From the IMG/VR virus record IMGVR_UViG_3300030044_000011: a stretch of DNA of 64,000 nucleotides; one strand, given 5' to 3'. The stretch is from a virus. Below, piece after piece: positions 3,554 to 45,402 of this stretch. Every line of letters starts with the position of its first letter. Within the stretch, counting starts at the first letter, position 1. The translations under genes were made by a program, and so were the position numbers. The notes beneath the pieces are model-generated. The model was not told the origin of the DNA. It ran no database searches and worked only from the letters and a program-made list of their open reading frames with translations.

Positions 3554-3743
3554 CACCGGGGATGAGAAAGTGGAAATTAGGGAAGTTGGAAATCAACCCT
3601 TCATCACATCCCGGCGTGGCCGCACGGGATGCTGAGGTCTCTAGTGGACTTCAGTCCCGTGCAACATAGGGCACGGTCGAAACGAACGGGTTGGTCGTGT
3701 GAAACTCATATATACATAATACACAGAAAGTCGGTAAGTTCAA
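3554..3743 (-). promoter_or_regulatory. promoter and putative attenuator of the Pro/Met tRNA array
   Basis: TTGAAC-16-TATTAT; alternative pairings 1:2, 2:3, 3:4, 4:5. Confidence 0.65.
3641..3709 (-). CDS. leader peptide MSFTRPTRSFRPCPMLHGTEVH
   Basis: ATG 6 nt after the -10 box (leaderless); Pro codons CCA, CCG, CCT. Confidence 0.65.
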   Translation of the reverse strand: MSFTRPTRSFRPCPMLHGTEVH

Positions 3744-3845
3744 ACACTATTTTTGAATATTCTCTATTTTCTTTTTCCACAGGTCGGGAGTATACTCTGA
3801 ACAGCAGGGTCATACCGACCCTCTGGATACCCATGGGAGGATAGT

Positions 3846-4106
3846 ATGAATCTTGAAGACTTCAAAAATCAACTGAGGATGGACATCCGGCGTATGCAAG
3901 CCGCGTTGGCCGCACTCGAAGGATCAGCAATGGCGGAAACCCCGAAACTATCAGCAAAGACCAAAGAGAAGATTTCCAATAGCATGAAGGCAAACTGGGC
4001 AGGTGGGCGGAAACGTACCTTATCCAAGGCTGTGAAGATCAAGATCGCGGCCTCACAACGTGCCCGTTGGGCGAAGCAGAAGGAAGCAGCAGCAGCGGCG
4101 GCGTAA
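3846..4106 (+). CDS. small basic histone-like DNA-binding protein
   Basis: GGAGG RBS; repeats KISNSMKANWA and KIAASQRARWAK. Confidence 0.75.
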   Translation: MNLEDFKNQLRMDIRRMQAALAALEGSAMAETPKLSAKTKEKISNSMKANWAGGRKRTLSKAVKIKIAASQRARWAKQKEAAAAAA

Positions 4107-4126
4107 CTTCTCTTAGGTCTTCTTAC

Positions 4127-4160
4127 CACCCCCACAGAGAGTACCTGTGGGGGTTATTTT
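4127..4160 (+). terminator. intrinsic terminator
   Basis: CCCCCACAG/CTGTGGGG hairpin followed by TTATTTT. Confidence 0.6.
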
Positions 4161-4276
4161 ATCCCGTGTCCCTTTTTGACCATACGCCTCACCAAGCATT
4201 AAGTAGACTCCGAAATAACCCGTCGTACAACCTTAACTAGGGGGTTGCATCTGATGGGATTGTAAGAGGAGGATAC

Positions 4277-4603
4277 ATGGATTTTGACGACATTGTTAAC
4301 GAACTCAGGGTTCAGCAGCGCCGGATCAATGCGGCTCTTGTTGCTCTTGTGGGGACGGCTCAGGCCGACGCTCCGGTAACACAACCTGCACCAAAGATCA
4401 CTGCAACCCCCAACCACCGTACAACCCGTCGTTCTTCAATGTCTTCAGGAGTGAAGCGGAAGATTTCGCTTGCCATGAAGCAGAACTGGGCAAGCCGGAA
4501 GCCTAAGCTCAAGTTGTCGCCGGAAATCAAGAGCAAGATTTCTTCCTCACAGAAGGCACGCTGGGCGTCGATCAAGGCAGCGGCTCAACAGATGGCAGCT
4601 TAG
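4277..4603 (+). CDS. small basic histone-like protein, paralog of 3846..4106
   Basis: GAGGAGG RBS; same repeat motif. Confidence 0.75.
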   Translation: MDFDDIVNELRVQQRRINAALVALVGTAQADAPVTQPAPKITATPNHRTTRRSSMSSGVKRKISLAMKQNWASRKPKLKLSPEIKSKISSSQKARWASIKAAAQQMAA

Positions 4604-4697
4604 CTGCTCATTCCACCAAAGTGGACTCTGACCTCCATGAGCAGCTTGCCGAGGATGTTCTCGCCTCGTGGCTCATGGGGGCCTTGCTTACATTACA

Positions 4698-5159
4698 TTA
4701 CAGAAACCGCGTCCACTCCCTCGACTTAAGCTGCCAACCCCTGTATGCCTTAATTTTCCCACTCGTAAGTTTGTGAAACTGACGGTAGCTGCTGCTGTTG
4801 ATTCGACAAAATTCTTTCAAATTACTCATCTGCACTTCTATTCCATCTGGATTAGTCAAAGTGTAGGTAACTCGATGTTTGGCGTTATGTCTAGCCTTGT
4901 CACTAAGCTGAGTCCCCTTAGCGGGGCGATTTGCTTGCAGAGCTACAAGTGTGACGGCGGGGACGGGGAGCCCTTTGTGTGACTGAGAAAGACGTTTCTT
5001 TCGAGCACCTGAAATCTTTCGCCCCTTAAGGGCTAAGCTAATTTTCTTCCCCACTTCGGGGGAGCACGAACCGGGAGCAGATTCCGTGCGCTTGGGAGGA
5101 AGCGGGATGGATGCGGTCGCGGGAGTGATTTTTGTCCACTGATACATAACTAGCTCCAA
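4698..5159 (-). CDS. NUMOD3-like DNA-binding protein or homing endonuclease remnant
   Basis: KKISLALKGRK, KRLSQSHKG motifs. Confidence 0.55.
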   Translation of the reverse strand: MELVMYQWTKITPATASIPLPPKRTESAPGSCSPEVGKKISLALKGRKISGARKKRLSQSHKGLPVPAVTLVALQANRPAKGTQLSDKARHNAKHRVTYTLTNPDGIEVQMSNLKEFCRINSSSYRQFHKLTSGKIKAYRGWQLKSREWTRFL

Positions 5160-5206
5160 GTATACAGGATGTATCCACCCCTACAATAAGGTGGATAGTC
5201 GAGTTA

Positions 5207-5704
5207 TTATGCCTGTAATTCCCTTTTACTGTATGTAGAGTAGTATTCGCGAACCTCCATGAGAATCCGACCAAGGTGGTTCAATCCCTCCGGTTCATGT
5301 GGCCCTTGTCTACAAGTCCCATCACACACCCCGAAGAATAGGTCATGCCAATTATTTCCTTCCACCAACTCCGCTGTGAAGGTTGAGATGAGTTTCCGAC
5401 GAAGAATAGTTGGGTAGAATTTCTGCATCAGCAAATCCCGCATGATGCCTATGTTCACTTCCTTCCAATCTGGCCGGAGCTTGCCACTGTCTGAAATGGC
5501 CTTACCCATGCGCTTAGCCCGACCCGCCGTTACCCCGGCGTAGAGAAACTTCTCCCGCTCTTTCAAGTTGAGTGTTTTAGCGGCCTGATACGCATGTTCG
5601 ACTGAAGGATAGGTCACTTCATCCAACACCACACTGCATGGGTAAAAGTTGGAGAGAAACCCCCACGGGTCTTTAAAACGGTCAATCAAAACGGGCAGGT
5701 CCAT
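5207..5704 (-). CDS. NADAR family protein
   Basis: FLSNFY, YPSVEHAYQAAK, LVEGNNWHDLFFG, GLNHLGRILMEVR. Confidence 0.92.
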   Translation of the reverse strand: MDLPVLIDRFKDPWGFLSNFYPCSVVLDEVTYPSVEHAYQAAKTLNLKEREKFLYAGVTAGRAKRMGKAISDSGKLRPDWKEVNIGIMRDLLMQKFYPTILRRKLISTFTAELVEGNNWHDLFFGVCDGTCRQGPHEPEGLNHLGRILMEVREYYSTYSKRELQA

Positions 5705-6114
5705 TAGTTCTTCTTTCCTGCAAGGAGCCGGTCAATCTCTCCTGCGTCATCCACATCTTTTACAATACTATGAAACACACATAGTGCATCAGTGGCTGCT
5801 GTAAAAATTCTACATATCTGTGGTCGGTCATCATAAATAGTGCAACGACCGTTCGTCCCGAGCTTTGGACAAGTGAACCATACATGAGCCCGTGTCCCCT
5901 TATGTGTGTGCCCACCAACCTCCAAGGGAATGTAGGGTAGTTTCTCCCTACGCATTGCAGCCTCGGCGTCTTTACGCCAACTATCCACCTTCCATGAGCG
6001 GTATCGACCAACAGGTGTGGTAAGCATGAACCTCTTGCAACAATGCCCCGGCTCCGGGCATACGCCACAGAGCCGATTAGCTTGATGGTCAATGATTGGG
6101 AATAGGCTACTCAA
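5704..6114 (-). CDS. YkgJ family cysteine-cluster protein
   Basis: CGVC..GHCC..CPKL..RCTIYDDRPQICR. Confidence 0.8.
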   Translation of the reverse strand: MSSLFPIIDHQANRLCGVCPEPGHCCKRFMLTTPVGRYRSWKVDSWRKDAEAAMRREKLPYIPLEVGGHTHKGTRAHVWFTCPKLGTNGRCTIYDDRPQICRIFTAATDALCVFHSIVKDVDDAGEIDRLLAGKKN

Positions 6115-6484
6115 GGGCAGTGGCGACCTCGCTAAGGAATTCTTTTGAATCGATGGCCTTGTCCAGCACCTTCACGAGGTTCAGGGGCGGGTAGTTCTTC
6201 AAAACGTTACGTACAAACGAAGGGTCTGAAGAAAACATCAACACCCGCTGTTTGTCATTATTACGGAGCACTCGTCGCATCAACTCGGCTCCATCCATGT
6301 GAGGCATAGACCAATCGCTTAGGACGAGGGTGAAGCCGTCGTTTGACCCACGGTAGGTTGCAAGCCCCTCAACCCCGTCCTGAGCCTCTACAACGTCAAA
6401 ACCAGCCCCTTTAAGGATGGTTCCGAAATACTCCCGGCAGTTCTTGTCGTCATCCACTAAAAGTACACGAGTTGATAGATTCAT
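6107..6484 (-). CDS. single-domain response regulator (REC)
   Basis: VLLVDDD, LSDWSMPHMDG. Confidence 0.9.
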   Translation of the reverse strand: MNLSTRVLLVDDDKNCREYFGTILKGAGFDVVEAQDGVEGLATYRGSNDGFTLVLSDWSMPHMDGAELMRRVLRNNDKQRVLMFSSDPSFVRNVLKNYPPLNLVKVLDKAIDSKEFLSEVATALE

Positions 6485-7444
6485 ATCCTCGGCCTCTTCA
6501 AAATAGCTTCACGCTGCTCCAGCGTCCAATACCCCAAGTCAAACTCTGCCTTCGTAATAGAGATGAATTTTGGTTGTTCATGTGCGTAGTTAAGTGAATA
6601 GCCTTCCCGGTCTTCTGTCACCCCCACGATGAATCAACCCTTTCCTGTAGCCTTGACTCCCCGTGAACGGAGAGATGAATCCAGAGACTGTTCCTTAATA
6701 GCCGCGTCGGAGAACACCAGACCATACCTATCCCCAAAGATGGCGGTAGCAAGACGTACAGCCTTGTACATATCCCGGAGGTATACCATCTCTTCGTCAG
6801 TGAGGTGGTCACCCATGGCGAACGCTTGAATAAGAGCACGAGGTTCTTTCATGCTCCATCCCGCTTCCCAGACTTTCCATCCGCAATACCGCGCTCGTAG
6901 GAGATTCGCATGGTTTGCTGAAGCACCATGTTAACGGCATCCCGAAGGCTCCGGCCAGCACCAAGCTCCATGAGAATGTAGCCGGTCCAATAGTTGAGCA
7001 ACTCGACAAAAGACATCTCTTCCAGAGTCTTTTCGTGAGACGACTTACTTGCCTTTGGCATGGGTTCCCTTCTTGGCCTCGTTGACGGCCTTGGCGACAA
7101 CACGAGTCGCCTTGGTGGTGTCACGACGGGCGTGCCCCTTGATGGGAGTGTTGCACTCAGCGCAGCGGGTGGATTTGGGCATCGTAAGTCTCCTAGTAGT
7201 TTTTGTGGGCGTCCCAGCCGCCACCTTCGTAGTCAATCTCTTCCTCGCGGTGTGAGAAACTACCCCGCAGGAGAGCCGCGTACTGCCCTGTTCGTTGTTC
7301 CTGCTTGACTGCCTTGCAGGATTTAGAGCAAAACCGAGCCCATCCGCGTTTGACATCAGCGAAACGAGCAGTGAAAGACTTACCACACTGCTTGTTCTCG
7401 CATTTACGCTCAACTCGCGTTGGCATCTATTACCTCACACACTC

Positions 7445-7484
7445 AGTATACCGGGAGTATAGAGGTTTTGGATAGTATTTTAGG
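7445..7484 (-). promoter_or_regulatory. conserved phage promoter (copies at 35231-35270 and 56586-56625)
   Basis: CCTAAAA(A/T)ACTA(G/T)C(T/C)AAAAC-N12-GGTATACT pattern. Confidence 0.7.
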
Positions 7485-7524
7485 GAATTTTTTTATGGGT
7501 AGGTAGCAAAGCAAAGTCGCACCC

Positions 7525-7938
7525 TTATTTCAGCTTATCTCGTACAACCTTATCAGGTGACAACCCATCTTGCCGGTAGTCCTCTAATAGAGCCAGAGAG
7601 TAATCGGCGATAGTAGTGTTAGAGCAATCACCCCAAACCTCAATAATCAATTCGGCGACTCTTTTATACCACGCTATCTTATCCATCTCATTCCTGACTT
7701 CACGAAGCCTATGAATGAAGGAGCGTTTGTCCAGTTCAATAGCCCCAAGCATTACAGCAACGGCACGCCTTGGTCTGAGCAAATCGTAGTGAGGGAACGA
7801 TGTCGGCTGGAACCATTGCCTCTTCATACCGATAGCATCCGCCATGGCGTGAAGCTCATCTATAGTATCCGCAATCATGTGGCAAGCATACTTCCATCGG
7901 CCATACTGTACTTAACGGATTGGATCGACATAAACCAT
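7525..7938 (-). CDS. DUF4031-like protein with in-frame TAA at codon 9
   Basis: MVYVDPIR*VQYGRWKYACHMIADTIDELHAMADAIGMKRQWFQ..PHYDL. Confidence 0.7.
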
Positions 7939-8357
7939 TAAGCAGGTATAAACGGCTGGTTCTTTTGTTCCCAGCCGTAGCAAAGATCACATTCGCAACA
8001 GAAGCCCTCTTCATCGTGCTCCTCGGCCAAATGTCCACATCTACAGACACGCCTGACGTATCGGGAGCATCCTGTGTCGTGTCCTCCCCGTAAATCGCGT
8101 TCACATTCTCCGCACTCAAGCCCCACGTGTTCTCCGAAGATGGTTCACCCACACTTGTTTCGCAGCATCCCTCATCGCGTTACGAGTGTCAATGCAGCTA
8201 TCGCAACCATAGCTTTTAGGCCCACCACCACATTCAGGACAACAGTCACAAGAGGGAATATCATCCTCAAAAGGGTCTCTGCAAAACTGACAAGCACGTC
8301 TAATGGTCACCGGCATTTTTCTTATCCCTCACACTGTAAAATTCATTACCATGCATG

Positions 8358-8693
8358 TTAATACCCTAAATCCTCACCTCTCCAAGCATACAAATCATCA
8401 ATAGCCAACTCATCCAGTCGGCCTATATTCTTGGCTCCGAAGTTTGGGGTTTGGGCATGACAGTTGGGACACAGAAAACGGATGTTATCCGGTTCATTGT
8501 TCAGCCAGTCGCCATCAATGTGGTCGATTTGAAGAACAATCGGTCGGCCTATCCATTCAGGGTTTTTGTGTAAGGGACATCTAGGATCAGAGCACCGATA
8601 GGGGACACCTGATTCCAACATAGCCCGTCGCAAGCGAGTCACATGCTCTCGATGTTTCTTGCGATTCCTAACTAGAATCTGGCTCCAGTGCAT
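8358..8693 (-). CDS. HNH endonuclease
   Basis: LQIDHIDGDWLNNEPDNIRFLCPNCH. Confidence 0.9.
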   Translation of the reverse strand: MHWSQILVRNRKKHREHVTRLRRAMLESGVPYRCSDPRCPLHKNPEWIGRPIVLQIDHIDGDWLNNEPDNIRFLCPNCHAQTPNFGAKNIGRLDELAIDDLYAWRGEDLGY

Positions 8694-8705
8694 TCATTGT
8701 AATAC

Positions 8706-8793
8706 TGGTACCCGACCCCGGACTCGAACCGGGAACCGCATTTCGCTTCTCGGGAGTTTAAGCCCCGCGCCTTTGCCATTTGACCAGTCGGGC
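8706..8793 (-). tRNA. tRNA-Leu(TAA)
   Basis: CGGGG-CTTAAAC-TCCCG; long V arm; CCA. Confidence 0.92.
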
Positions 8794-8800
8794 ATAACTT

Positions 8801-8889
8801 TGGTCGGGAAGGTGGGACTTGAACCCACAACCGTTTCACACTTATCGAGTGTTTGAGACTCGCGCCTTTGCCAATTTGACCACATCCCG
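8801..8889 (-). tRNA. tRNA-Leu(CAA)
   Basis: CGAGT-CTCAAAC-ACTCG; long V arm; CCA. Confidence 0.88.
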
Positions 8890-9005
8890 ATTTGAAACTA
8901 TTGGAGACCAGTTACTCAATCGCCTTGGCGTGTATCTCGCCTACCACAGCTTTCGCCAGTCATACGGGGATCAGCGTACGTCCGTTTCACAGACTTATCC
9001 AAATT

Positions 9006-9092
9006 TGGTGCGCCCGAAGGGACTCGAACCCATACCCCCTTGCGGGGATTAGCACCTCAAGCTAACGCGGCTACCAATTACGCCACGGGCGC
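9006..9092 (-). tRNA. tRNA-Leu(GAG)
   Basis: TTAGC-TTGAGGT-GCTAA; CCA. Confidence 0.93.
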
Positions 9093-9153
9093 AAACTTCT
9101 ACTACAACAAAACTTGGTGCTTCACATTCTTACCACAAGTGCCTGTGCCAGAA

Positions 9154-9231
9154 TGGTAGCCGAGGTGGGATTCGAACCCACACTGTACGGATTTTGAGAC
9201 CGTTGCCTCCTGCCAGTTGCGCTACTCGGCC
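9154..9231 (-). tRNA. tRNA-Leu(CAA), short variable arm
   Basis: ACGGT-CTCAAAA-TCCGT; CCA. Confidence 0.9.
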
Positions 9232-9246
9232 ATTACATCAAAACTT

Positions 9247-9330
9247 TGGTAGCCCCACTCGGACTCGAACCGAGACGCCTTTCGACATTAGTTCCTAAGA
9301 CTAACGTGTCTGCCATTCCACCATGGGGCC
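9247..9330 (-). tRNA. tRNA-Leu(TAG)
   Basis: TTAGT-CTTAGGA-ACTAA; CCA. Confidence 0.93.
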
Positions 9331-9338
9331 GTTAAAAC

Positions 9339-9569
9339 CTATCGCTCCGTACGCTGCGTCTTCGGAAGGTCGAGACCCCAGCCACGCTGGATATTCTCGG
9401 AGTCCTGACGCATGTACACAGCCGCAACTTTCCATTCACCACTCTCGGGCTCATCCTTCAGGGTGATAACAGAGCCGCGCTTCACACCTCGGTTAGCGGG
9501 AACCCACGCCACCTTACAGTGAATACCGCGTTCTGACTCTTGCTGCAACATTGTTTGAACTAATTCCAT
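9339..9569 (-). CDS. hypothetical protein
   Basis: 76-aa ORF filling the gap between tRNAs. Confidence 0.6.
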   Translation of the reverse strand: MELVQTMLQQESERGIHCKVAWVPANRGVKRGSVITLKDEPESGEWKVAAVYMRQDSENIQRGWGLDLPKTQRTER

Positions 9570-9586
9570 TTCTTTCTCTTTCTTTA

Positions 9587-9674
9587 TGGTGCCCGGAGAG
9601 GGATTCGAACCCCCACGAGAATTAACCCACTGGCTTCTAAGACCAGCGCGTCTCGCCAATTTCGCCATCCGGGC
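9587..9674 (-). tRNA. tRNA-Leu(TAG)
   Basis: CTGGT-CTTAGAA-GCCAG; CCA. Confidence 0.93.
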
Positions 9675-9679
9675 ACATC

Positions 9680-10318
9680 TTAAATTCGACCCCTTCTCCA
9701 TCCAATCAAAACGTAAGAGGTCAAATCGTTTTGCTTAATCTTGATGGCTCTTTCACCGTCCGTTACCCAACGAGTACCGAACTGTGAATTCTTATCCCCC
9801 GCTCTATTCACCAATGCCATCTTTGCTTTGGTGTCCGCCCTGTGCTTCCGACCAGTCCAAGTGCGTTTACTCGCCGCTGAAATCTTAGCTGACACATCCG
9901 GTTCAACACCATGTTCCCTAATCTGGTTGGCCCGAGCCTCACTCATCATCTTGTAATGCTGTGGGTCTCGATGACTCTGAGAACTGTGTGACACTCTGGC
10001 GGCATTGGCGTAGTCGGCCAACCCTTCTCGATTGATATAGTCAAACCCACCAGAGCCCCCTTTTCTCAAATTCATACAGAGAGGGTTACCCCGCCAACAT
10101 TGAATCAACTCATCCTCTTTGCCAAATGCTGATTCAACATCGAGGTAGATGAACAGGACTTCCTTATGGAAGTTTTGTTCCCCATATTTTGCAACGGCTC
10201 GTTTGATGTATGTACCGGAACCGAGGTACGCATCATCAGGGTCTTTCGTTTTGTGAACCCCGAAGTAGAACTTGCCGTTGAGCAGGTTGACGGTTTTGTA
10301 AACCGTGTAGTATGTCAT
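9680..10318 (-). CDS. GIY-YIG (Seg-like) homing endonuclease
   Basis: VYKTVNLLNGKFYFGVH, YLGSG, NLRKGGSGG, NUMOD3-like tail. Confidence 0.85.
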   Translation of the reverse strand: MTYYTVYKTVNLLNGKFYFGVHKTKDPDDAYLGSGTYIKRAVAKYGEQNFHKEVLFIYLDVESAFGKEDELIQCWRGNPLCMNLRKGGSGGFDYINREGLADYANAARVSHSSQSHRDPQHYKMMSEARANQIREHGVEPDVSAKISAASKRTWTGRKHRADTKAKMALVNRAGDKNSQFGTRWVTDGERAIKIKQNDLTSYVLIGWRRGRI

Positions 10319-10363
10319 GAACCTATCAGTGCCCTCTACATAAGATACTGATAATCACGAATG

Positions 10364-10448
10364 TGCATGGAGTAGGATTTGAACCTACGTAGCCCCAAGG
10401 GGCGGGTGTTTTACAGACACCTAGTTTTAACCACTCACTCATCCATGC
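10364..10448 (-). tRNA. tRNA-Tyr(GTA), CCA not encoded
   Basis: GGTGT-CTGTAAA-ACACC; long V arm. Confidence 0.9.
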
Positions 10449-10455
10449 AAACTTT

Positions 10456-10548
10456 TGGTGCGTCCGACAGGATTTGAACCTGTTGTGTTTACCGCTTGGG
10501 TGCCGAGTTTACAGCCCGGTGCCACTCCCCCGTCGTGACCGCGAACGC
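10456..10548 (-). tRNA. tRNA-Tyr(GTA)
   Basis: CCGGG-CTGTAAA-CTCGG; long V arm; CCA. Confidence 0.88.
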
Positions 10549-10549
10549 A

Positions 10550-10711
10550 TTACTGCTTCGGAACATGTTGAAGATGAAGTGTACGCACAGCCTCAAGGTT
10601 ACGCTGTGCTGCTTCTCTCGTAGTTCCCGAGGTCACCAGACCCCAAGTTCTATCTTCAGCCACCCAACGCTTTGTTTCCGCGTCGAGCCAAAATTGTTCC
10701 GTTTCAAACAT
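10550..10711 (-). CDS. HicB-like antitoxin domain protein (53 aa)
   Basis: GGAG RBS; WVAEDRTWGLVTSGTTREAAQRNLEAV matches the HicB pattern. Confidence 0.6.
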   Translation of the reverse strand: MFETEQFWLDAETKRWVAEDRTWGLVTSGTTREAAQRNLEAVRTLHLQHVPKQ

Positions 10712-10719: not shown

Positions 10720-10750
10720 AAAAACAAAAGCCGCCCCAATCGGGCGGCTT
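10720..10750 (-). terminator. attenuator terminator upstream of the Leu/Tyr array
   Basis: AAGCCGCCC-GATT-GGGGCGGCTT-TTGTTTTT. Confidence 0.9.
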
Positions 10751-10774
10751 CGTGATTCATCTGAACTTTGGGGT

Positions 10775-10867
10775 TTAGATTGAGCCCCCTTCAGACGACA
10801 CGAAGCCGTTGCTAAGCAGGTAATACAAGCTTAGGCTAAGGTTCGAGTTGACTGATAAGCGGTTCAT
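10775..10867 (-). CDS. leader peptide MNRLSVNSNLSLSLYYLLSNGFVSSEGGSI
   Basis: GAGGAAG RBS; promoter TTGAAA-16-TATTAT at 10908-10935; overlaps antiterminator. Confidence 0.8.
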   Translation of the reverse strand: MNRLSVNSNLSLSLYYLLSNGFVSSEGGSI

Positions 10868-11006
10868 ATTCTTCCTCTCGGGCAGTGCCCGTTTCACATC
10901 TGTATACATAATACCGCGAAAGTTGAGGTTTTCAACACTGTTTTTGAATTTATTTTCATAGCTTATGGATTTTTCACTTTCCACCTCCTCTGTAGGAGGG
11001 TTTGAC

Positions 11007-11750: not shown

Positions 11751-11751
11751 C

Positions 11752-12853: not shown

Positions 12854-13813
12854 TCATCCGCGTACTCCCTCAGTCAGTTCCAACATTGAATACTGCGCCT
12901 TCAGCTTTTCAAACGCCTTCTTAAGGTGTGTGCCATATTGGTCGGTAACAATAAGCACTGAATTCATACGGGGGATCATGATACACATCTCCGAGGTGAT
13001 GTCGTGGGCAGCGAAGACCTCATCCATAATCTTTCGGGCGAACAGAACCTCTTGTAGAATTTCACCGCCAGATTTCGAGAAGAATGGGTATGGAATCCCT
13101 TCGGCCATAAATCCAGTTGTGGCGAAGCTACCACCGGGAGAGCCGAAAGTGGCCTTTGCCATGGTCGGACCTGAGTCTGGAGCCCAGTGGATATAGAAGG
13201 GTTTAAGGTTTGGTAGCGTTTTGAGGTACTTGTCACCGCCGACGCCGAGCATGGATATGTTACGACTGTCGGAGAAGGCTGGTGTGGTACCAATGGGAGA
13301 GAGGCGGTAGCTTACCTGAGGAGTGAACTGTGCGAGAATCTTCAACGACTTGAGCGTACTCAACACATTATTGTGTTGCTTCTCCTCATCGGTCGATGCA
13401 TTCTTCACCATTTTTGCCTTAGGCTCAAAAGGATTGAGCTTAGCGTCCTTCGGCCATGTAGCCTTCAACTTGTCCACCTCCGCTTGAGCATCCGATGTCA
13501 GATAAGCCATGCCGGTATATGACTGAAGGTTTAACAGCACCTGAGTGAAGAGAGCGTAATCAAGTTGATTGTAGAGACAACGAAGGACAGCCAGCTTGTC
13601 ATAGCCGGTTGGCTCTGACTTAATTTCTGGACCTGAGGCAATCCAACAATCACGAAACATCTTGTTAAGAAGCGTGCTGCCGTGGTCGGTGCGGCTGAAT
13701 TCAAGATGCTCAAAAGTCTTCTTGAATTCAGCTTGCATGGCTTCTTCAGACAAAAATACTTCATGGATTCGAGCGGCGAATGTGTCAGCGACACGTTGGT
13801 AAATCTCTTGCAT
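12854..13813 (-). CDS. hypothetical protein
   Basis: 319-aa ORF in operon. Confidence 0.75.
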   Translation of the reverse strand: MQEIYQRVADTFAARIHEVFLSEEAMQAEFKKTFEHLEFSRTDHGSTLLNKMFRDCWIASGPEIKSEPTGYDKLAVLRCLYNQLDYALFTQVLLNLQSYTGMAYLTSDAQAEVDKLKATWPKDAKLNPFEPKAKMVKNASTDEEKQHNNVLSTLKSLKILAQFTPQVSYRLSPIGTTPAFSDSRNISMLGVGGDKYLKTLPNLKPFYIHWAPDSGPTMAKATFGSPGGSFATTGFMAEGIPYPFFSKSGGEILQEVLFARKIMDEVFAAHDITSEMCIMIPRMNSVLIVTDQYGTHLKKAFEKLKAQYSMLELTEGVRG

Positions 13814-39308: not shown

Positions 39309-39384
39309 TGGTGTCGCCGATGGGAATCGAACCCACCATCATCTGATTGAAAGTCAGAGGTCCAGACCGATAGACGGCGGCGAC
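39309..39384 (-). tRNA. tRNA-Glu(TTC)
   Basis: TCTGA-CTTTCAA-TCAGA; CCA. Confidence 0.93.
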
Positions 39385-39438
39385 AAACTTAAATCCGGGT
39401 GCCTTACGTTGACTCCTCGATACACGAAACTCATAACT

Positions 39439-39553
39439 TGGTGCCGGGGTAGGTATCGAAGCCTACAAACTCACAAAACCCGTTCGCATAAACGGGCATA
39501 CTTTGTGATGCCTATGGATGCCTCCAGCGAATCTACCAATTCTTCCACCCGGC
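39439..39553 (-). ncRNA. 115-nt tRNA-like RNA with greatly extended central arm
   Basis: GCCGGG/CCCGGC-ACCA; D-loop AATTGGTAGA; T arm GTAGG-CTTCGATA-CCTAC. Confidence 0.6.
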
Positions 39554-39559
39554 GTAGCT

Positions 39560-39635
39560 TGGTGCCCTCGGTAGGAATCGAACCTACGACTTCTTCCGTG
39601 TGAAGGAAGCACTCGTACCGCTGAGTTACGAGGGC
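39560..39635 (-). tRNA. tRNA-Val(CAC)
   Basis: CTTCC-TTCACAC-GGAAG; CCA. Confidence 0.93.
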
Positions 39636-39832
39636 GAAACTTATTCTCAAGGAGGGGCATCGAACCCCCATCTCCGCCACGAACGGGCGGTGTCCTTACC
39701 GCTTGTCACTCCGACATCAGAGGCTATTACTAGCTTGGTGCTGACGGAACCCAGTTACATGCTGCTCAGTATATCGACAGCGGAGCAACATTTACCCGTC
39801 ATTGCTCTGCCATGTTAGACGACCTTGAAACT

Positions 39833-39907
39833 TGGTAGCCCTAGAGGGAGTCGAACCCTCATTCTCACCTTGAAAGGGTGCCTTCCTAGCCGTTAGAAGA
39901 TAGGGCC
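39833..39907 (-). tRNA. tRNA-Glu(TTC)
   Basis: CACC-CTTTCAA-GGTG; CCA. Confidence 0.93.
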
Positions 39908-39927
39908 ATAAACTACCACCGATTACT

Positions 39928-40003
39928 TGGACGCGGAGACGAGGATTTAACTCGTGTCTCAACCTTTGCAGGGTCGCGCCTGATTCGCCTCGGCCACTCC
40001 GCA
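39928..40003 (-). tRNA. tRNA-Cys(GCA), atypical T-loop
   Basis: CGACC-CTGCAAA-GGTTG; U73; CCA. Confidence 0.85.
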
Positions 40004-40340
40004 TTAAAAACTCTTGCTTCTGCTGGCACACAGGCCGCACAAAGGTGCTTTGCCTCGTGCTTGAAACTCTGTCCCGACCCCGTCTCGAAAACTACAGTGA
40101 AGCCAATATCATCGAAGTGTGGGCACTCTGGTATACCTTCCAACTTGCAGAACTCCGATAGTTCATAAGCCATCACCATCGTGATCCTCAGGGTGGTAAG
40201 CATCCCACACTTTCAATACCGCAATCAAAACAAAAATACCAATCAAAACGAAAAAAGTTCCAACATCAACGTGCCCGGTGAAACCATACTCGGGAGTCCA
40301 TGGTGCTTGCATAGTAGACCTCTACTATGCTTCTCATATT

Positions 40341-40415
40341 TGGTAGCCCTACGGGGTGTCGAACCCCGGTTGTCAGGTTGAGAACCTGCTTTCCTAACCG
40401 CTAGAAGATAGGGCC
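40341..40415 (-). tRNA. tRNA-Glu(CTC)
   Basis: CAGG-TTCTCAA-CCTG; CCA. Confidence 0.93.
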
Positions 40416-40429
40416 AAACTACAAACTAG

Positions 40430-40513
40430 TGACGAGTGAAGGATTCGAACCTTCGTTCCCGCCCTTCGCATAAAGCTACTAAGCGAGTTTTTAGGCCACT
40501 AAAGTAACCCGTC
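40430..40513 (-). ncRNA. tRNA-like RNA with expanded anticodon loop
   Basis: GACGGGT/ACTCGTC acceptor; canonical T arm; no 7-nt anticodon loop. Confidence 0.6.
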
Positions 40514-40517
40514 AAAC

Positions 40518-40566
40518 TGGAGCCGAGGGGGCGTGGTTATCCGCCACGGGATTTCCCTTACTCGGC
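40518..40566 (-). ncRNA. 49-nt T-armless mini-tRNA-like RNA (GAT loop)
   Basis: GCCGAG/CTCGGC-TCCA; CGTGG-CGGATAA-CCACG. Confidence 0.5.
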
Positions 40567-40798
40567 ATAAACTCGATTAACTGCGTCCGTCTTCACTTTA
40601 CTAGCCACCCGCCAAGGTCATGGTTGGGGAAGCAACTTTCGCTAGAGCTATCTTGGTGACCCCTACTCTTCCTTTCGGTACCATGGGTATGGGTCAGAGC
40701 CCATAAATCACCGCAGCCTTCACAGCGTGACAAAGCGACTTGCCACTTACGCACTAAGATACACCGTGTTCTGTAATCACACTATGCACTGTGAAACT

Positions 40799-40831
40799 TG
40801 GTGGATGTGACAGGAGTCGAGCTACACACCC
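40799..40831 (-). ncRNA. 33-nt Ala-identity minihelix
   Basis: GGGTGTG/CACATCC-ACCA with G3:U70. Confidence 0.5.
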
Positions 40832-41396
40832 AAAACCTCTTCTACCGCTTCATCAACGGTGGCGATGGCAATCACTTTGCCAGTTTCTGTCGTTCTCGGC
40901 CACCGTAGTTTACCTATGCATTCATCACCCTTATACACGCAGATACTGTACTTCCCGCTTCTCTCACCATCGTTCTCACATAGTGATAAAGTCGGGTCTT
41001 TCGAAATTGCAATTACTGCGTCAATAAAAGTCATTCACCCTCATCCACCAACTCAACCAAGAGTTGTATAGCTTCAATCTCGCGGTCTCCAACCTGTGAG
41101 ACCTTACCTGTTACTGTGTCCGTGACCTTGAGCGGCCATTGCTTTGCCTTGATGTCGGCGATGCTGACAGTCGGACAGCTTACTAACGTGAACTCAGGTA
41201 CACTATACTTCATTCAATCCACACTTCTCACAAAGGTCAGGGTCGTCTTCATCGCTGAGTGGTGCCTTACAACTCAAGCACCGCTTGTATGTGTCGGGCT
41301 CTTCCAACCCCGCGTACCACGGACTGCAAATACATTCACCCACACAAACATCGTTTTCGCAAACCGCGTTGAACTTCATCTCTTCCTAACTATTCA

Positions 41397-41500
41397 TGCA
41401 ACAGGTGGGATTCGAACCCACGGCGTCCATAACAATCCGCCAGCGATATAGGCCCTTAACCATGAGACGTGGAATGCTCTACCAACTGAGCTACCATTGC
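41397..41500 (-). ncRNA. tRNA-like RNA with insertion in the anticodon region
   Basis: Canonical D arm and T arm; TCCA/TGGA enclose about 40 nt. Confidence 0.65.
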
Positions 41501-41600
41501 ACAAACTTGGTGGACGCAGGGGACTTGGCACCCCATCGCTCGGCGTTACCACTATGGACGCCCACATTTCAATTCCTTAAGCCGAGTTCCGGACTTAACT

Positions 41601-41679
41601 TGGTGGAGCTATGGGGACTCGAACCCCACTGGATTCCTCATTGCGAATGAGGTGAACACCCCCGGCATTCCCTAGCCCC
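41601..41679 (-). tRNA. tRNA-Ala(CGC)
   Basis: CCTCA-TTCGCAA-TGAGG; G3:U70; CCA. Confidence 0.9.
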
Positions 41680-41763
41680 AAACTTTCGGGAGGAGAGGTT
41701 CTACGCATCTCACACGTTGAGAGCAAATCCCCTCTATCTCCCTGCATCTGTCAGACTGTCGTG

Positions 41764-41831
41764 TAGACACGGAGAGATTCGAACTCTCATTTCCCCTCGA
41801 TAGGGGCGTCCTACCATTAGACGACGAGCCT
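41764..41831 (-). pseudogene. tRNA-like gene with shortened anticodon loop
   Basis: Glu/Gln-like D arm; CCCCT-ATCG-AGGGG; normal T arm. Confidence 0.6.
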
Positions 41832-42439
41832 CAGCCCGACAAACCCTTAACCCAAACACTTACCGAACTCTTTGCAACCCCGAGTAAAGCTGCGATTTGG
41901 GCTTTACAAATTCCTTGTTCAAACAACTCCTGCGCTTTCATTCGTTCAACCGCTTTTATATTTCTCAACCTTGCGGCGGCGGAGCCTATCGCTGATAATC
42001 CTCTTTGCTTTGCCATCTCCGATGACCCACGAGCGCCACTACGATTGAAATTGTTGCGAATCATATCCCGATAGTTAGCGTCTGTCTTCCAACGCTCCGC
42101 GCTGTTAGTCCTATTGGCCGCTCGAACCCTCCACCCTTGGTTGGGTTGCTGATTTATCCAGTCGAAGCCACCACTCCCACCTTGTCTCAGGTTGTAGCAC
42201 AAAGGGTCGGCTCGATACGTTTCAATCAGTTCGTATTCTTTAGCAAATGCCTCCCCTGAGTTGTCGAAGATGAAGCACACGTTCTTTATGAACGACTGCT
42301 CACCGTGCTTACGAATCGCCGCCTTCAGAACCTTACCTGACCCAAGGTACCCGTCGTACGGGTTCTTGGTTTTGTGGACGCCGAAGTAATACTTTCCGTT
42401 CACCAAATTCTGTGTTCGATACACTGTGTAAAATATCAT
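41831..42439 (-). CDS. GIY-YIG (Seg-like) homing endonuclease with C-terminal HTH
   Basis: Paralog of 9680..10318; KAQIAALLGVAKSSVSVW. Confidence 0.85.
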   Translation of the reverse strand: MIFYTVYRTQNLVNGKYYFGVHKTKNPYDGYLGSGKVLKAAIRKHGEQSFIKNVCFIFDNSGEAFAKEYELIETYRADPLCYNLRQGGSGGFDWINQQPNQGWRVRAANRTNSAERWKTDANYRDMIRNNFNRSGARGSSEMAKQRGLSAIGSAAARLRNIKAVERMKAQELFEQGICKAQIAALLGVAKSSVSVWVKGLSG

Positions 42440-42505
42440 GAACCTATCAGCCTCTCAGGTTTCTGAGGACTTAACCTCTACTAAAGAGGTTGATAGTCAC
42501 GAATG

Positions 42506-42578
42506 TGCGCCTTGTAGGAATCGAACCTACGGTCCCTTCCATGTCAAGGAAGTGCTCTAGCCGCTGAGCCAAAGGCGC
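42506..42578 (-). tRNA. tRNA-Val(GAC), CCA not encoded
   Basis: CTTCC-TTGACAT-GGAAG. Confidence 0.9.
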
Positions 42579-42652
42579 AAAACTAGTTAGCGGCTGCAAG
42601 CGCGTCCGTCCTGCATTTAATCCCTAAACCTGAGGGAACCACACTTTAAAGT

Positions 42653-42729
42653 TGGCGGGGACGACGGGGCTCGAACCCGCGACCTCTACCGTGACAGGGT
42701 AGCGTTCTAACCAACTGAACTACATCCCC
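42653..42729 (-). tRNA. tRNA-Asp(GTC)
   Basis: CTACC-CTGTCAC-GGTAG; G73; CCA. Confidence 0.95.
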
Positions 42730-42739
42730 AACTTCAAAC

Positions 42740-42814
42740 TGGCGGAGACGGCGAGGGTTGAACTCGTATATTCTTCCGTGACAGGGAAGCCCATTGCCAT
42801 TATGGTACGTCTCC
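42740..42814 (-). tRNA. tRNA-Asp(GTC)
   Basis: TTCC-CTGTCAC-GGAA; G73; CCA. Confidence 0.9.
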
Positions 42815-42908
42815 TCAAGGGTGTGTTCCGCAGCTTTTAGTTCTCACTGCAAGCCCTAAGCCCGTGCGCCTTTGTGCGGTACGACGTTAGGTGCTACCCT
42901 TTGAAACT

Positions 42909-42984
42909 TGGCGGGGCTGATGGGACTCTAACCCACGATAGACGGCTCGACAAGCCGCTGCATTAGACGCTATGCTACAACCCC
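42909..42984 (-). tRNA. tRNA-Asp(GTC)
   Basis: GCGGC-TTGTCGA-GCCGT; G73; CCA. Confidence 0.85.
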
Positions 42985-43178
42985 TTGGTGGACGTGTCGT
43001 GCCGCTTACGCTGTCATTTAACGACCGGGTACCTCATCTCTCTAATTACGAGTGTGCTGTTCAACTGCACACACCCATACGATTTGAGCTACCACAACAG
43101 TGTCGTTCAGTAGAGCCATTTGGCTGGATTGTTCATACCCGAAGGGAACTCTCCGGCATCACATCCTCTACTAAAATT

Positions 43179-43253
43179 TGGTGGACCTAGAGGGGATTGA
43201 ACCCTCGACTTCTTCCATGCCATGGAAGCACTCTCCCACTGAGTTACAGGCCC
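43179..43253 (-). tRNA. tRNA-Ala(GGC)
   Basis: CTTCC-ATGGCAT-GGAAG; G3:U70; CCA. Confidence 0.92.
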
Positions 43254-43261
43254 CTAAAACA

Positions 43262-43471
43262 TCAAAACCTTTTGCCACTGTTCAGCATATTTATCCTTTC
43301 TAATACCGAGGGCTCCGTCAACAGCAGACGTAAATTCTCATTCGGCTGTGTTGGCCTTTCCAACATTGCAACAAACTCTTGCCACTGCTCAGGACTGAGG
43401 CGAATGTTGTTCTCTTCACCAGCCAGTCGGGTATGAACGCTTCTCATGTCGGCATCGAAGTTAATCTTCAT
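43262..43471 (-). CDS. TacA/DUF1778-like antitoxin C-terminal domain protein (69 aa)
   Basis: AAAGGAG RBS; IRLSPEQWQEFVAMLERPTQPNENLRLLL. Confidence 0.75.
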   Translation of the reverse strand: MKINFDADMRSVHTRLAGEENNIRLSPEQWQEFVAMLERPTQPNENLRLLLTEPSVLERINMLNSGKRF

Positions 43472-43487
43472 CGCTCTCCTTTCAAAT

Positions 43488-43563
43488 TGGAGGCGATGAT
43501 GGGATTCGAACCCATGCATAACGGTTTTGCAGACCGCCGCGTTAACCACTTCGCCACATCGCC
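43488..43563 (-). tRNA. tRNA-Cys(GCA)
   Basis: CTGCAAA loop; U73; CCA. Confidence 0.95.
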
Positions 43564-43581
43564 TATAACACCAACAAAACT

Positions 43582-43655
43582 TGGAGCGGATAGTCAGATT
43601 TGAACTGACGGTGACAGGGTGGAAGCCTGTTGCCTTACCGCTTGGCTATACCCGC
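43582..43655 (-). tRNA. tRNA-Gly(TCC)
   Basis: ACAGG-CTTCCAC-CCTGT; U73; CCA. Confidence 0.93.
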
Positions 43656-43881
43656 TTTGAATCAGAGATATTTTCGTACCTCCAGTGGTCCGAATCGGTA
43701 GCTCTCATATGAGCTACATCCCCACATAAGAGAACTGTTCAATCGGAAGGTCTTTCCAAAAGACCAACTCCGCCACCAGAAATAGTACCTCCACATATCT
43801 CCTCAATTTCTCGACGCCTCTCCGCCGTGCCACACCACTTTAGTCCGCAGGACTCGGTAGGTGTCACCCCGCTTAAAACTC

Positions 43882-44277
43882 TGCACTAGACTTATAGCCG
43901 GAGTTCTGTCCAGAGGGTTACCCCTCCTGTACAATCATTCGTCTCGGCCAGCCGTTACCGTCTGGCTCTAGCCCCCAACCCGCCGATTCATAACGGTACG
44001 AGCAGTACCTGTCGGCCTATTTGAGGTTGCACCGCGTAGAGATTGCCCGTTTCACCCGAATTTAATCGGCTCGTCTCTGTTGCTCTAATCGTCACACTCA
44101 ACATCGGACGGGTTGTTCCCATAGGGTTGGTGGAAATCAACCAGACGTATAGCTGCGTCCCCTTACGCTACGTCCCCGAACAAGTGTGCTAGGGTGTTAC
44201 CCTATACGCTGCTCTGTGGTGCTCCGAACTTCCTCGAAGTGGTATTGCGCCACGTCGCGATTGTCCAGTCTAGTGCA
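43882..44277 (-). ncRNA. rnpB: RNase P RNA
   Basis: P1 TGCACTAGACT/AGTCTAGTGCA; GAGGAAGTTCGGAGC and ACAGAACTCCGGCTAT (P4); GCAACAGAGA, GGGTGAAACGG. Confidence 0.92.
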
Positions 44278-44304
44278 TACTTAATGAAACCGAGGCCGAA
44301 GCTG

Positions 44305-44649
44305 TTACTGTACTGCCGACGTGCGCTGTACTGCCACGCTACGAAGGTAAGCACGCATCTCGTCCGAGAACTCATTGAACATCTCACCCTTATCCAACCA
44401 GTGCAAAATGGTCTCCCAGTTCTCTTCCTCAGGCGTCCACTGACCCTCCAAGCCGTAGCAAGAGCAGTGACCGCCACTTACTGAGAACAGCTTCCCGTCC
44501 TTCTCGAACAGAACGAATGCCGAACCCGAATAGTCCTCGTAGCTATACACCGCTGCGTAGACCAACGCATCCTTCAATTCATCCTGACCAATATTGAACT
44601 GGTCGCATACATCCTCAACGCTGCCGAACCTATCTACAAATACTTCCAT
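44305..44649 (-). CDS. conserved phage hypothetical protein
   Basis: AAGGAG RBS; YEDYSG..GGHCSCYGLEGQW. Confidence 0.75.
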   Translation of the reverse strand: MEVFVDRFGSVEDVCDQFNIGQDELKDALVYAAVYSYEDYSGSAFVLFEKDGKLFSVSGGHCSCYGLEGQWTPEEENWETILHWLDKGEMFNEFSDEMRAYLRSVAVQRTSAVQ

Positions 44650-44718
44650 CGTTTTCTCCTTGTGGTACAAACCATCGAGAGAAACGGTGAGGTAATTGTT
44701 CGACCTCGGTTTCAAATT

Positions 44719-44797
44719 TGGTGGACCGTCAGAGATTTGAACTCTGCTGATATTCTGTGTGCAAGACAGATAAACACTCCTAGCATTTCCACGGCCC
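44719..44797 (-). tRNA. tRNA-Ala(TGC)
   Basis: TCTGT-CTTGCAC-ACAGA; G3:U70; CCA. Confidence 0.9.
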
Positions 44798-44934
44798 AAT
44801 ATTGTCAAACATCATGTAATCACCGGCTGGCCGGGATTAAAAATCTTGGTGGCTTTGGCTCACGCCGGGGCACCACCCGCGCCCCTCGAAGTAAACTTAC
44901 CCAGTCTTGTGGACTGGAGTCTTGCTCCAGAGCT

Positions 44935-45009
44935 TGGAGCGGCTGGTGGGATTCGAACCCACGACCTCTTCCTTGGCAAGGAAGCGTTCTACCACTGAAC
45001 TACAGCCGC
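44935..45009 (-). tRNA. tRNA-Gly(GCC)
   Basis: Canonical; TTGCCAA loop; CCA. Confidence 0.96.
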
Positions 45010-45039
45010 ATATACTTCAATACTGCAAAAACCAAAACT

Positions 45040-45115
45040 TGGTGCTCCAAGTGGGACTCGAACCCACGATAGTCTGCTTGTAGGGCAGATGATTTAGCCG
45101 CTAATCTACCGGAGC
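45040..45115 (-). tRNA. tRNA-Val(TAC)
   Basis: TCTGC-CCTACAA-GCAGA; CCA. Confidence 0.92.
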
Positions 45116-45127
45116 AATCTTTACTGC

Positions 45128-45159
45128 AAAAACGAAAGGCCAGCCTTTTCGGCTGGCCT
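45128..45159 (-). terminator. attenuator terminator upstream of the GNN/Cys array
   Basis: AGGCCAGCC-GAAAA-GGCTGGCCT-TTCGTTTTT. Confidence 0.9.
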
Positions 45160-45179
45160 CGGTTTCGATTTCAGACTGG

Positions 45180-45323
45180 TTAGTTAGTCTTAATCTCTCC
45201 CGAGGCCATGGTATCCTCTCCCGCGCAACCGGCTTCAGCGGCTGCGACAGCTACGACTACGCCCACGACGCCAGTGTTCGGTGCGTCCATGGTGTTAATC
45301 GAAATGTTGGTACGGATAGTCAT
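45180..45323 (-). CDS. leader peptide MTIRTNISINTMDAPNTGVVGVVVAVAAAEAGCAGEDTMASGEIKTN
   Basis: AAGGA RBS; promoter TTGCAC-18-TATTAT at 45344-45373; overlaps antiterminator. Confidence 0.85.
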   Translation of the reverse strand: MTIRTNISINTMDAPNTGVVGVVVAVAAAEAGCAGEDTMASGEIKTN

Positions 45324-45402
45324 GGTGTTTGTCCTTCTGTTACATAATACGCAGAAAGTTGAAATTTGTGCAAGCTGTTTTTCATTTATTTTCACAGCTT
45401 AT

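Follow-up and report, generated by a model that had tools for sequence, protein, structure and literature searches.

Candidate leader-peptide transcription attenuators upstream of the tRNA operons of a soil phage and its relatives

INTRODUCTION

Why phages carry large sets of transfer RNA (tRNA) genes is an old question, and the answers proposed include compensation of codon usage and the making good of tRNA losses caused by host shut-off or anticodon nucleases. The question is raised again by IMG/VR virus record IMGVR_UViG_3300030044_000011, from which a stretch of 64,000 nucleotides (hereafter, the window) was analysed. An exact-protein match places the window at bases 144,773–208,772 of a 310,335-bp metagenome contig, belonging to a soil phage of about 310 kb. 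The window encodes 31 tRNAs, all on the minus strand and arranged in three arrays, and each array is headed by a promoter and a short open reading frame (ORF). What do these short ORFs do? Judging from the sequence, we consider it likely that they form part of ribosome-mediated leader-peptide transcription attenuators, each placed before a tRNA operon.

RESULTS

Three tRNA arrays behind a shared promoter core

A sequence-only reading that preceded this analysis had described the tRNAs as grouped by amino acid, which is borne out by the ARAGORN calls. The arrays are as follows.

2961–3519, minus strand: array 1, Pro-tgg, Pro-cgg, Pro-ggg, an odd tRNA with an 8-nt anticodon loop, and Pro-tgg
8706–10711, minus strand: array 2, a 53-residue ORF, Tyr-gta, Leu-tag (two), Leu-caa (two), Leu-gag and Leu-taa, with GIY-YIG-like and HNH ORFs interspersed
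39309–45115, minus strand: array 3, Val (three), Ala (four), Asp (three), Glu (three), Gly (two) and Cys (two), with a ribonuclease P (RNase P) RNA gene and a TacA-like ORF inside

Downstream of array 1 come a release-factor-like gene and two Met tRNAs. The Tyr and six Leu tRNAs of array 2 span 10448–8706, and the ARAGORN total for array 3 is given as eighteen tRNAs for Val, Ala, Asp, Glu, Gly and Cys.

The same promoter core was said to precede every array, and this too holds. The motif ACTTTC-N3-GTATTATGTA has exactly three matches in the window, a number that does not rise when two mismatches are tolerated. All are minus-strand matches, one upstream of each array (3731–3713, 10923–10905 and 45359–45341). 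By chance 0.04 matches would be expected, and no shuffled sequence reached three. All three matches fall within sigma70-like promoter sites identified by a consensus scan.

3716–3743, minus strand: promoter of array 1, hexamers TTGAAC-16-TATTAT, with the first core match
10908–10935, minus strand: promoter of array 2, hexamers TTGAAA-16-TATTAT, with the second core match
45344–45372, minus strand: promoter of array 3, hexamers TGCACA-17-TATTAT, core ACTTTCTGCGTATTATGTA at the third match, with an A-rich tract upstream

Leader ORFs carry codons for the tRNAs that follow

In all three cases the 5' leader of the transcript contains a short ORF with translation start signals, either an AGGA or GAGG Shine–Dalgarno sequence 6–8 nt before the ATG or an ATG positioned 6 nt after the -10 box.

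3641–3709, minus strand: leader ORF 1, 22 codons and TAG, ATG exactly 6 nt past the TATTAT -10 box
10775–10867, minus strand: leader ORF 2, 30 codons and TAA, GAGG Shine–Dalgarno sequence
45180–45323, minus strand: leader ORF 3, 47 codons and TAA, AGGA Shine–Dalgarno sequence 8 nt before the ATG

Because its ATG sits exactly 6 nt after the -10 box, leader 1 suggests a leaderless mRNA that starts where transcription would begin; the same spacing is found in three related loci described below (L036, L107 and L030).

The codons of the leaders correspond closely to the arrays. Codons 18–37 of leader 3, a block of 20, specify only Val, Ala, Gly, Glu, Cys and Asp, and the leader contains Watson–Crick codons for all 13 anticodon species of array 3, a coverage that none of 20,000 random windows of the phage's own genes matched (P < 5e-5). 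Leader 2 has six Leu codons of five kinds (TTA, CTT, CTA, TTG and CTG) together with both Tyr codons (TAT and TAC), and the Pro codons of leader 1 (CCA, CCG and CCT) correspond to Pro-tgg, Pro-cgg and Pro-ggg. When wobble is allowed, each of the 22 anticodon species in the three arrays is readable from its own leader. The synonymous codons used are spread rather than biased, with five Leu, four Ala, three Val and three Pro codons represented.

Stop-in-loop hairpins overlap the hairpins that follow

It had further been proposed that the 3' end of each ORF folds into a long hairpin whose apical loop holds the stop codon, and that this hairpin excludes the next one, an intrinsic terminator in two of the three leaders. 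Folding calculations and the consensus scan agree with both parts. The stop-in-loop hairpins, interpreted here as antiterminators, have predicted energies of -26.9, -32.2 and -21.2 kcal/mol in leaders 3, 2 and 1, against -21.0, -20.2 and -18.8 kcal/mol for the respective hairpins that follow, and are far stabler than shuffled sequence (z = -6.4, -7.0 and -5.7). In the folds every one of them overlaps the 5' arm of the next hairpin. The elements are as follows.

3655–3676, minus strand: segment 1:2 of the Pro leader, CCGUGC / GCACGG, -10.3 kcal/mol, over the CCG and CCU control codons
3622–3662, minus strand: segment 2:3 of the Pro leader, the antiterminator, with TAG (3643–3641) in the apical loop
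3606–3632, minus strand: segment 3:4 of the Pro leader, invariant in relatives
10746–10807, minus strand: antiterminator 2, GGCUUCGUG pairing with CACGAAGCC, with TAA (10777–10775) in the apical loop
10717–10751, minus strand: intrinsic terminator 2, 10-bp stem and U tract
45224–45246, minus strand: hairpin in the control-codon block of leader 3, CGCAGCCG / CGGTTGCG, -11.7 kcal/mol
45154–45208, minus strand: antiterminator 3, UGGCCUCGG pairing with CCGAGGCCA, with TAA (45182–45180) in the apical loop
45127–45160, minus strand: intrinsic terminator 3, 10-bp stem and U tract, 12 nt before Val-tac, the first tRNA

Antiterminator 3 takes 7 of the 10 nt in the 5' arm of its terminator and antiterminator 2, in its fold, captures 8 of 10. 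Canonical intrinsic terminators were located by the consensus scan at 45160–45136 and 10751–10727. In the Pro leader, segment 1:2 rivals the antiterminator for GCACGG, and the 3:4 hairpin is followed by a short U run in the relatives L036 and L107. The hairpin in the control-codon block of leader 3 sits in a stretch that is nearly invariant in nucleotides among eight relatives, and may be an RNA polymerase pause hairpin.

Metagenome relatives preserve the leader–array correspondence

Scanning metagenomes for the promoter motif gave 116 loci, 12 of which have a tRNA downstream of it. Leader cassettes are present in 11 of the 12; the remaining locus, L123, lacks a leader ORF and appears to be a chance match. 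Several relatives repeat array types of the window, namely Tyr/Leu (L070, L118 and L132) and Pro (L036, L107 and L112), and a relative of the Val/Ala type (L012) came from a scan of viral contigs. In IMG/VR the strict promoter motif yielded L012 and one transfer-messenger RNA (tmRNA) locus and nothing else, and a relaxed motif of the L137 type gave 23 chance matches, none of them followed by tRNAs. No relatives of the gene upstream of array 3 were found in the related-locus search, and at the DNA level deposited phages gave only tRNA-length matches to the window.

Two array types absent from the window, Ser and Ile/Thr/Gln, occur in relatives from peat and soil metagenomes. The array of L060 consists of four Ser tRNAs with Leu-taa and Ile-tat, and its 23-codon leader carries five kinds of Ser codon, nine in all, as well as single TTA and ATA codons, covering all six anticodons (P < 5e-5). 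A second Ser leader, in L055, contains all six Ser codons; an exact-protein search for a link between the L055 contig and the window phage gave no match. Of the leaders that head Ile/Thr/Gln arrays, L030 has eight Thr codons of all four kinds in addition to Gln and Ile codons, and L120 has a Thr run accompanied by Ile and Gln. Taken over 11 leader/array pairs, the leaders offer a readable codon to 56 of 57 anticodon species of their own arrays, and for five array types the true pairing of leaders with arrays is the best of 120 permutations.

The nearest cultured relative is the Tunturiibacter phage Tunturi_5 (308,711 bp, Acidobacteriota host), with a DNA polymerase 47% identical to that of the window phage. 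The paper on Tunturi_5 counts 43 tRNA genes and says nothing on their control (PMC11924767). The 41 tRNAs found here are divided otherwise than in the window and fall into three clusters, with a short ORF and a terminator ahead of each one.

Cluster A: Leu/Cys/Tyr/Ser tRNAs; these four amino acids make up 16 of the 31 leader residues, two of which are Cys
Cluster B: Gln/Gly/Thr/Pro/His/Ala/Phe tRNAs; the leader has Gln, His, Thr, Phe, Ala, Pro and Gly codons
Cluster C: Trp/Asp/Met/Lys/Val/Arg/Glu/Ile/Gly tRNAs; in the leader, annotated as gp308, 37 of 48 residues match

A 3x3 table of leader residues against array sets gives a chi-square p of 8e-8, and leader A is recognisably homologous to leader 2 of the window. 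In a further phage, CcrBL9 of Caulobacter, the annotated 39-residue gp149 lies directly before an array of 12 tRNAs (Pro, Thr, Lys, three Leu, His, Ala, three Ser and Trp), and 33 of its 38 post-start residues are among the eight amino acids of that array. The CcrBL9 case suggests, at the level of sequence, that the leader-cassette design is widespread among tRNA-rich phages. A lack of correspondence in homologous arrays had been named beforehand as evidence against the proposal; the correspondence is instead kept in eight array types beyond those of the window, which include the Ser and Ile/Thr/Gln arrays, the three of Tunturi_5 and that of CcrBL9.

These comparisons bear on the idea that the leaders gauge translation capacity in general, or serve as coupling devices, with read-through following any slowing of ribosomes or failure of initiation, and that their codon match is a by-product of codon usage or of shared ancestry. 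Such a gauge would suit the Val/Ala, Tyr/Leu, Ser and Thr leaders, which have no anti-antiterminator and would read through whenever no ribosome comes, and would suit antiterminators that are stabler than the terminators. However, the codon content differs among the leaders of a single genome and tracks the arrays, also after their re-division in Tunturi_5, and a null model built from genes of the phage itself is rejected. We regard this explanation as improbable.

Both alternative helices are conserved

Folds of single sequences indicate that, in 17 of the 18 terminator-bearing leaders, 5–13 nt of the 5' arm of the terminator are captured by a segment that lies within the 3' end of the ORF or immediately ahead of it. 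The stop codon lies in or beside the apical loop of the antiterminator in these folds, despite differing peptide tails. A terminator stands between ORF and first gene in arrays 2 and 3, in the Val/Ala, Tyr/Leu, Ser and Ile/Thr relatives and in Tunturi_5, and not in the Pro leader of the window. Among the Pro leaders, the inner stems of the antiterminator (CUGAAGUC/GACCUCAG, GCACAC/GUGUGC and GAAGC/GCUUC) differ in sequence with pairing kept.

The Val/Ala leaders, the only family widened by homology, were extended by protein search to eight sequences and aligned (alignment A1). Compensatory changes occur at three pairs of the terminator and at two pairs of the outer antiterminator stem. In the alignment 95% of the terminator cells and 93% of the antiterminator cells are paired, falling to 17–48% once the partner is slid. 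In one member, L137, the nucleotide shared by the two helices is changed from G to A, and its antiterminator partner and its terminator partner are both changed from C to U. This triple change is direct evidence, within the alignment, that one nucleotide serves both helices.

The alignment also speaks to the leader ORF. Ten consecutive codons (GAA GCC GGT TGC GCG GGA GAG GAT ACC ATG) are nucleotide-invariant in seven of the eight Val/Ala leaders, with variable flanks; the sole deviant, L140, differs at one third position. The first eight of these codons are all different and each is readable by another tRNA species of the array, a pattern that fits selection on codon identity. The ORF and its Shine–Dalgarno sequence are kept in all eight leaders, with length changes that preserve the frame. 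The N-terminal part of the leader shows no sign of purifying selection at the protein level (29 synonymous against 153 non-synonymous codon differences), which fits a peptide that has no function of its own; these counts are not positive evidence of translation.

It could be argued that there is no switch and that the loci are ordinary terminators or insulators close to a promoter, accompanied by small ORFs that are unrelated or due to chance, given that short ORFs and hairpins are both common. Against this stand the covariation in both alternative helices and the retention of the leader architecture (ORF, start signal, frame-preserving indels, stop-in-loop geometry and composition) in at least 20 leaders from three phage lineages and eleven tRNA groupings, so that we consider the explanation very improbable.

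A candidate switch responding to tRNA supply

The sequence-only reading likened the loci to attenuation of the trp and his type applied to tRNA arrays, a view that the array correspondence, the covariation and the per-sequence folds support. In the proposed mechanism, a strong sigma70-type promoter would give a transcript that opens with an ORF of 22–47 codons. The middle of the ORF would act as a "test strip" of codons for the downstream tRNAs, often one per isoacceptor. Its 3' end would enter a very stable antiterminator, which has the stop codon in its apical loop and whose 3' arm is the 5' arm of the terminator before the first tRNA. A ribosome that reads quickly would open the 5' arm of the antiterminator and come to rest on the stop codon, holding the two arms apart, so that the terminator forms and few tRNAs are made. 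Were the ribosome to stall on the test codons, with cognate tRNAs scarce, damaged or uncharged, the antiterminator would form and polymerase would read through into the array. As the products of the array are the tested tRNAs, the outcome would be negative feedback on decoding capacity, each tRNA set having a loop of its own. The 1:2 hairpin of the Pro leaders would compete for the 5' arm of the antiterminator, giving the classical four-segment layout. We infer translation of the ORFs, the direction of the switch and its physiological trigger, the switch logic being deduced from the modelled geometry. Host cleavage or depletion of tRNAs, put forward as the trigger in the sequence-only reading together with antitoxins made on demand, may be what the leaders respond to.

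The same machinery might instead take amino-acid supply as its signal, through uncharged tRNA, with tRNA output rising during host starvation. A stalled ribosome cannot distinguish a missing tRNA from an uncharged one, and the architecture is that of amino-acid attenuators. Yet extra tRNA would bring no relief from amino-acid starvation, which would make the feedback useless. The leaders moreover sample codons of single isoacceptors, and the rare TTA and ATA appear exactly where Leu-taa and Ile-tat are encoded, as fits sensing of tRNA species. Supply of amino acids is accordingly an unlikely signal in our estimation. The isoacceptor-wise design argues for the sensing of tRNA species over amino acids, because making tRNA would not relieve a shortage of the latter.

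Several observations weigh against attenuation by the leaders as outlined here. The claimed match between leader codons and the amino acids of the arrays stands in the codon coverage, but is weaker at the amino-acid level. The amino-acid enrichment of the individual window leaders is modest (p = 0.06, 0.016 and 0.005), the link of leader 1 to Met is weak, depending on one internal ATG that is missing in relatives, and leader 2 is rich in Ser though array 2 has no Ser tRNA. The Ser content is plausibly explained by the homologous leader A of Tunturi_5, since the array behind that leader holds Ser tRNAs. The strength of the match comes from codon-level coverage and from the relatives rather than from amino-acid enrichment in single leaders.

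Other such observations are structural. The 3:4 hairpin of the window Pro leader has no U tract and was not recognised as a canonical terminator in the consensus scan; the sequence downstream includes a C-rich tract. An anti-antiterminator, or 1:2 protector, which is typical of leader-peptide attenuators without strictly defining them, is present in the Pro leaders only; in leaders of the Val/Ala and Tyr/Leu types there is no competition between the upstream hairpin and the antiterminator, and outside the Pro leaders an untranslated transcript would read through, unlike in trp and his. The equilibrium fold of the Val/Ala leader allows a shortened antiterminator and a 7-bp terminator to be present together, and in leader 3 exclusion would rest, according to the folding model, on the bottom pairs of the terminator and on the kinetics or order of folding. 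A ribosome stalled at the last two or three test codons would cover the 5' arm of the antiterminator and therefore not all matched codons would act in the same direction. Finally, L060 is the exception among the 18 folds: the pairing exists (9 of 10 bp by eye), and the minimum-energy fold does not choose it.

Known leader families and precedent

Searches of the window and seven related loci against Rfam at the gathering score returned tRNA, RNase P RNA and tmRNA only, and no known leader family. The T-box riboswitch (RF00230) and the known amino-acid leader families (Leu_leader, Thr_leader, His_leader, Trp_leader and others) gave no match at that threshold. The leaders might conceivably form an RNA-only switch that binds tRNA directly in the manner of T-boxes, with the leader codons as specifiers, as T-boxes also sense tRNA through a terminator/antiterminator pair. 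The lack of an Rfam match, the placing of the codons within a conserved ORF that has a start signal and a positioned stop, and the number of tRNA species per leader, which reaches 13, make this extremely improbable. The sequence-only reading knew of no such description for phage tRNA operons. In full-text searches of the literature, no report of tRNA genes controlled by leader-peptide attenuation came to light for either phages or cells, and Rfam offered no precedent.

Other genes within and around the arrays

Side observations were made on the tRNAs themselves. The tRNA with an 8-nt anticodon loop (gttg) in array 1 lies at 3156–3231 (minus strand). A second Tyr-like class II tRNA was recognised, by eye only, just before tRNA-Tyr at about 10455–10548 (minus strand), and two Rfam tRNA matches at 41397–41500 and 41764–41831 are absent from the ARAGORN calls. 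A lone tRNA-Phe(gaa), at 13457–13532 of L147 and about 1.8 kb past the window start, has no promoter motif, leader ORF or terminator before it. No other tRNA and no leader were found in the 8.8 kb beyond the window start that L147 covers. At least this tRNA of the phage stands outside any cassette.

The promoter core (ACTTTCTGGGTATTATGTA) also occurs directly before a tmRNA gene, with no leader ORF, in a 463-kb viral contig (L010, 882–1245, minus strand). The relative L120 encodes a permuted tmRNA at 5916–6256 (minus strand) behind a GGTATTAT -10 region. With the same core preceding a tmRNA that has no leader ORF, the core looks like a general promoter for genes of stable RNA and the leader cassette like a feature particular to tRNA arrays.

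Array 3 contains, downstream of its attenuator, a full-length RNase P RNA gene of bacterial class A at 43879–44276 (minus strand; 162.5 bits, gathering score 100), which is found also in the relative L012 (3694–4068). A ribozyme for processing of tRNA 5' ends seems to be supplied by the phage itself; a literature search for RNase P RNA in jumbo phages found nothing relevant.

The sequence-only reading had also seen antitoxin-like ORFs in the arrays, of which one stands. An ORF of 69 residues at 43262–43471 (minus strand) has tRNA-Cys and tRNA-Ala on either side and matches TacA in its C-terminal part, which binds the toxin (PF08681, E = 6.8e-7, 29.6 bits, cut-off 21). There is no toxin gene near it. 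Toxins of the TacT type acetylate aminoacyl-tRNA, and the TacA-like ORF may be a decoy against them. In contrast, the HicB reading of the 53-residue ORF that follows attenuator 2 was not sustained, as Pfam gave a sub-threshold DUF7387 match only and no supported family.

Downstream of the Pro tRNAs, the release-factor-like gene (2031–2868, minus strand) is split over two overlapping frames. Pfam PCRF and RF-1 match a 195-residue part of it, and the gene is 86% identical in L036. For this gene the sequence-only reading suggests a prfB-like +1 frameshift at UAG. The three distinct Pro leaders (that of the window, that shared by L036 and L112, and that of L107) all end in TAG, and TAA is the stop codon of most other leaders. 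In relatives, the Ile/Thr arrays have tRNAs with a CUA anticodon, that is, amber suppressors, immediately upstream (L030, 1982–2134; L120, 3333–3407); none was found in the window. From these tRNAs, late-stage reassignment of UAG is a possibility in this phage group.

Among the tRNAs of array 2 are an HNH ORF (8358–8693, minus strand; weak Pfam match) and a GIY-YIG-like ORF (9680–10318, minus strand). HNH homologues also occur within the arrays of L012, L030, L055, L070 and Tunturi_5, and homing endonucleases may drive the shuffling of tRNAs between arrays.

DISCUSSION

Leader-peptide attenuators are known from enterobacteria, where trpL, hisL, leuL and pheL are examples and the leaders of ilvGMEDA (Ile/Leu/Val) and thr (Thr/Ile) are multivalent. 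With the last two the phage leaders share a short leader that would be translated, control codons for several amino acids, a choice of fold that ribosome position would make, and an intrinsic terminator with an exclusive antiterminator that overlaps it at the 5' arm. The Pro leader additionally has the full 1:2, 2:3 and 3:4 layout of enterobacterial attenuators. Unlike ilvGMEDA and thr, however, the phage leaders would regulate tRNAs rather than biosynthetic enzymes, and the molecules sensed would be the products. Their control codons are spread over synonyms and sample isoacceptors, up to 13 tRNA species per leader. Most have no 1:2 protector, the stop codon is in the apical loop of the antiterminator, and the leaders are phage-borne and occur once per array.

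Two further systems are instructive. The pheST attenuator, with its pheM leader, controls an aminoacyl-tRNA synthetase operon, and resembles the proposed phage devices in applying leader-peptide attenuation to the translation apparatus rather than to amino-acid biosynthesis; it differs in being cellular, in having a protein enzyme as its target and in responding to one amino acid, Phe. T-box riboswitches, as proposed for the phage leaders, sense tRNA status through a choice of terminator or antiterminator upstream of translation-related genes, but they bind tRNA by a specifier codon and the T-box sequence with no ribosomes involved, whereas the phage leaders keep an ORF that appears to be translated. 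The mechanism class is a textbook one. What is new, on our reading, is the targeting of tRNA operons with feedback from their own products, the use of one codon per isoacceptor, the stop-in-loop geometry usually without a protector, and the presence of one such device per array.

It is conceivable, and we put it tentatively at somewhat less than an even chance, that phages of unrelated lineages (acidobacterial jumbo phages, phiCbK-like Caulobacter phages and others) control each tRNA operon through its own products, with a translated strip of isoacceptor-specific test codons that gauges decoding capacity in real time, replacing exactly the tRNAs that the host lacks or that anticodon nucleases destroy and co-inducing anti-toxin decoys such as the TacA-like ORF. 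This would amount to a general and unrecognised form of translational homeostasis and counter-defence.

If the leaders act as proposed, a built-in sensor of slow codons would make the purpose of phage tRNA sets directly testable, and a cultured pair for such experiments is available in Tunturi 5 on Tunturiibacter psychrotolerans X4BP1 (PMC11924767). The leaders would name the tRNA species that the phage monitors, and read-through would report when these become limiting. Leader-peptide attenuation would be extended from amino-acid and synthetase operons to stable-RNA genes, and the leaders, with one codon for each isoacceptor, could be used as natural biosensors of how much tRNA is available.

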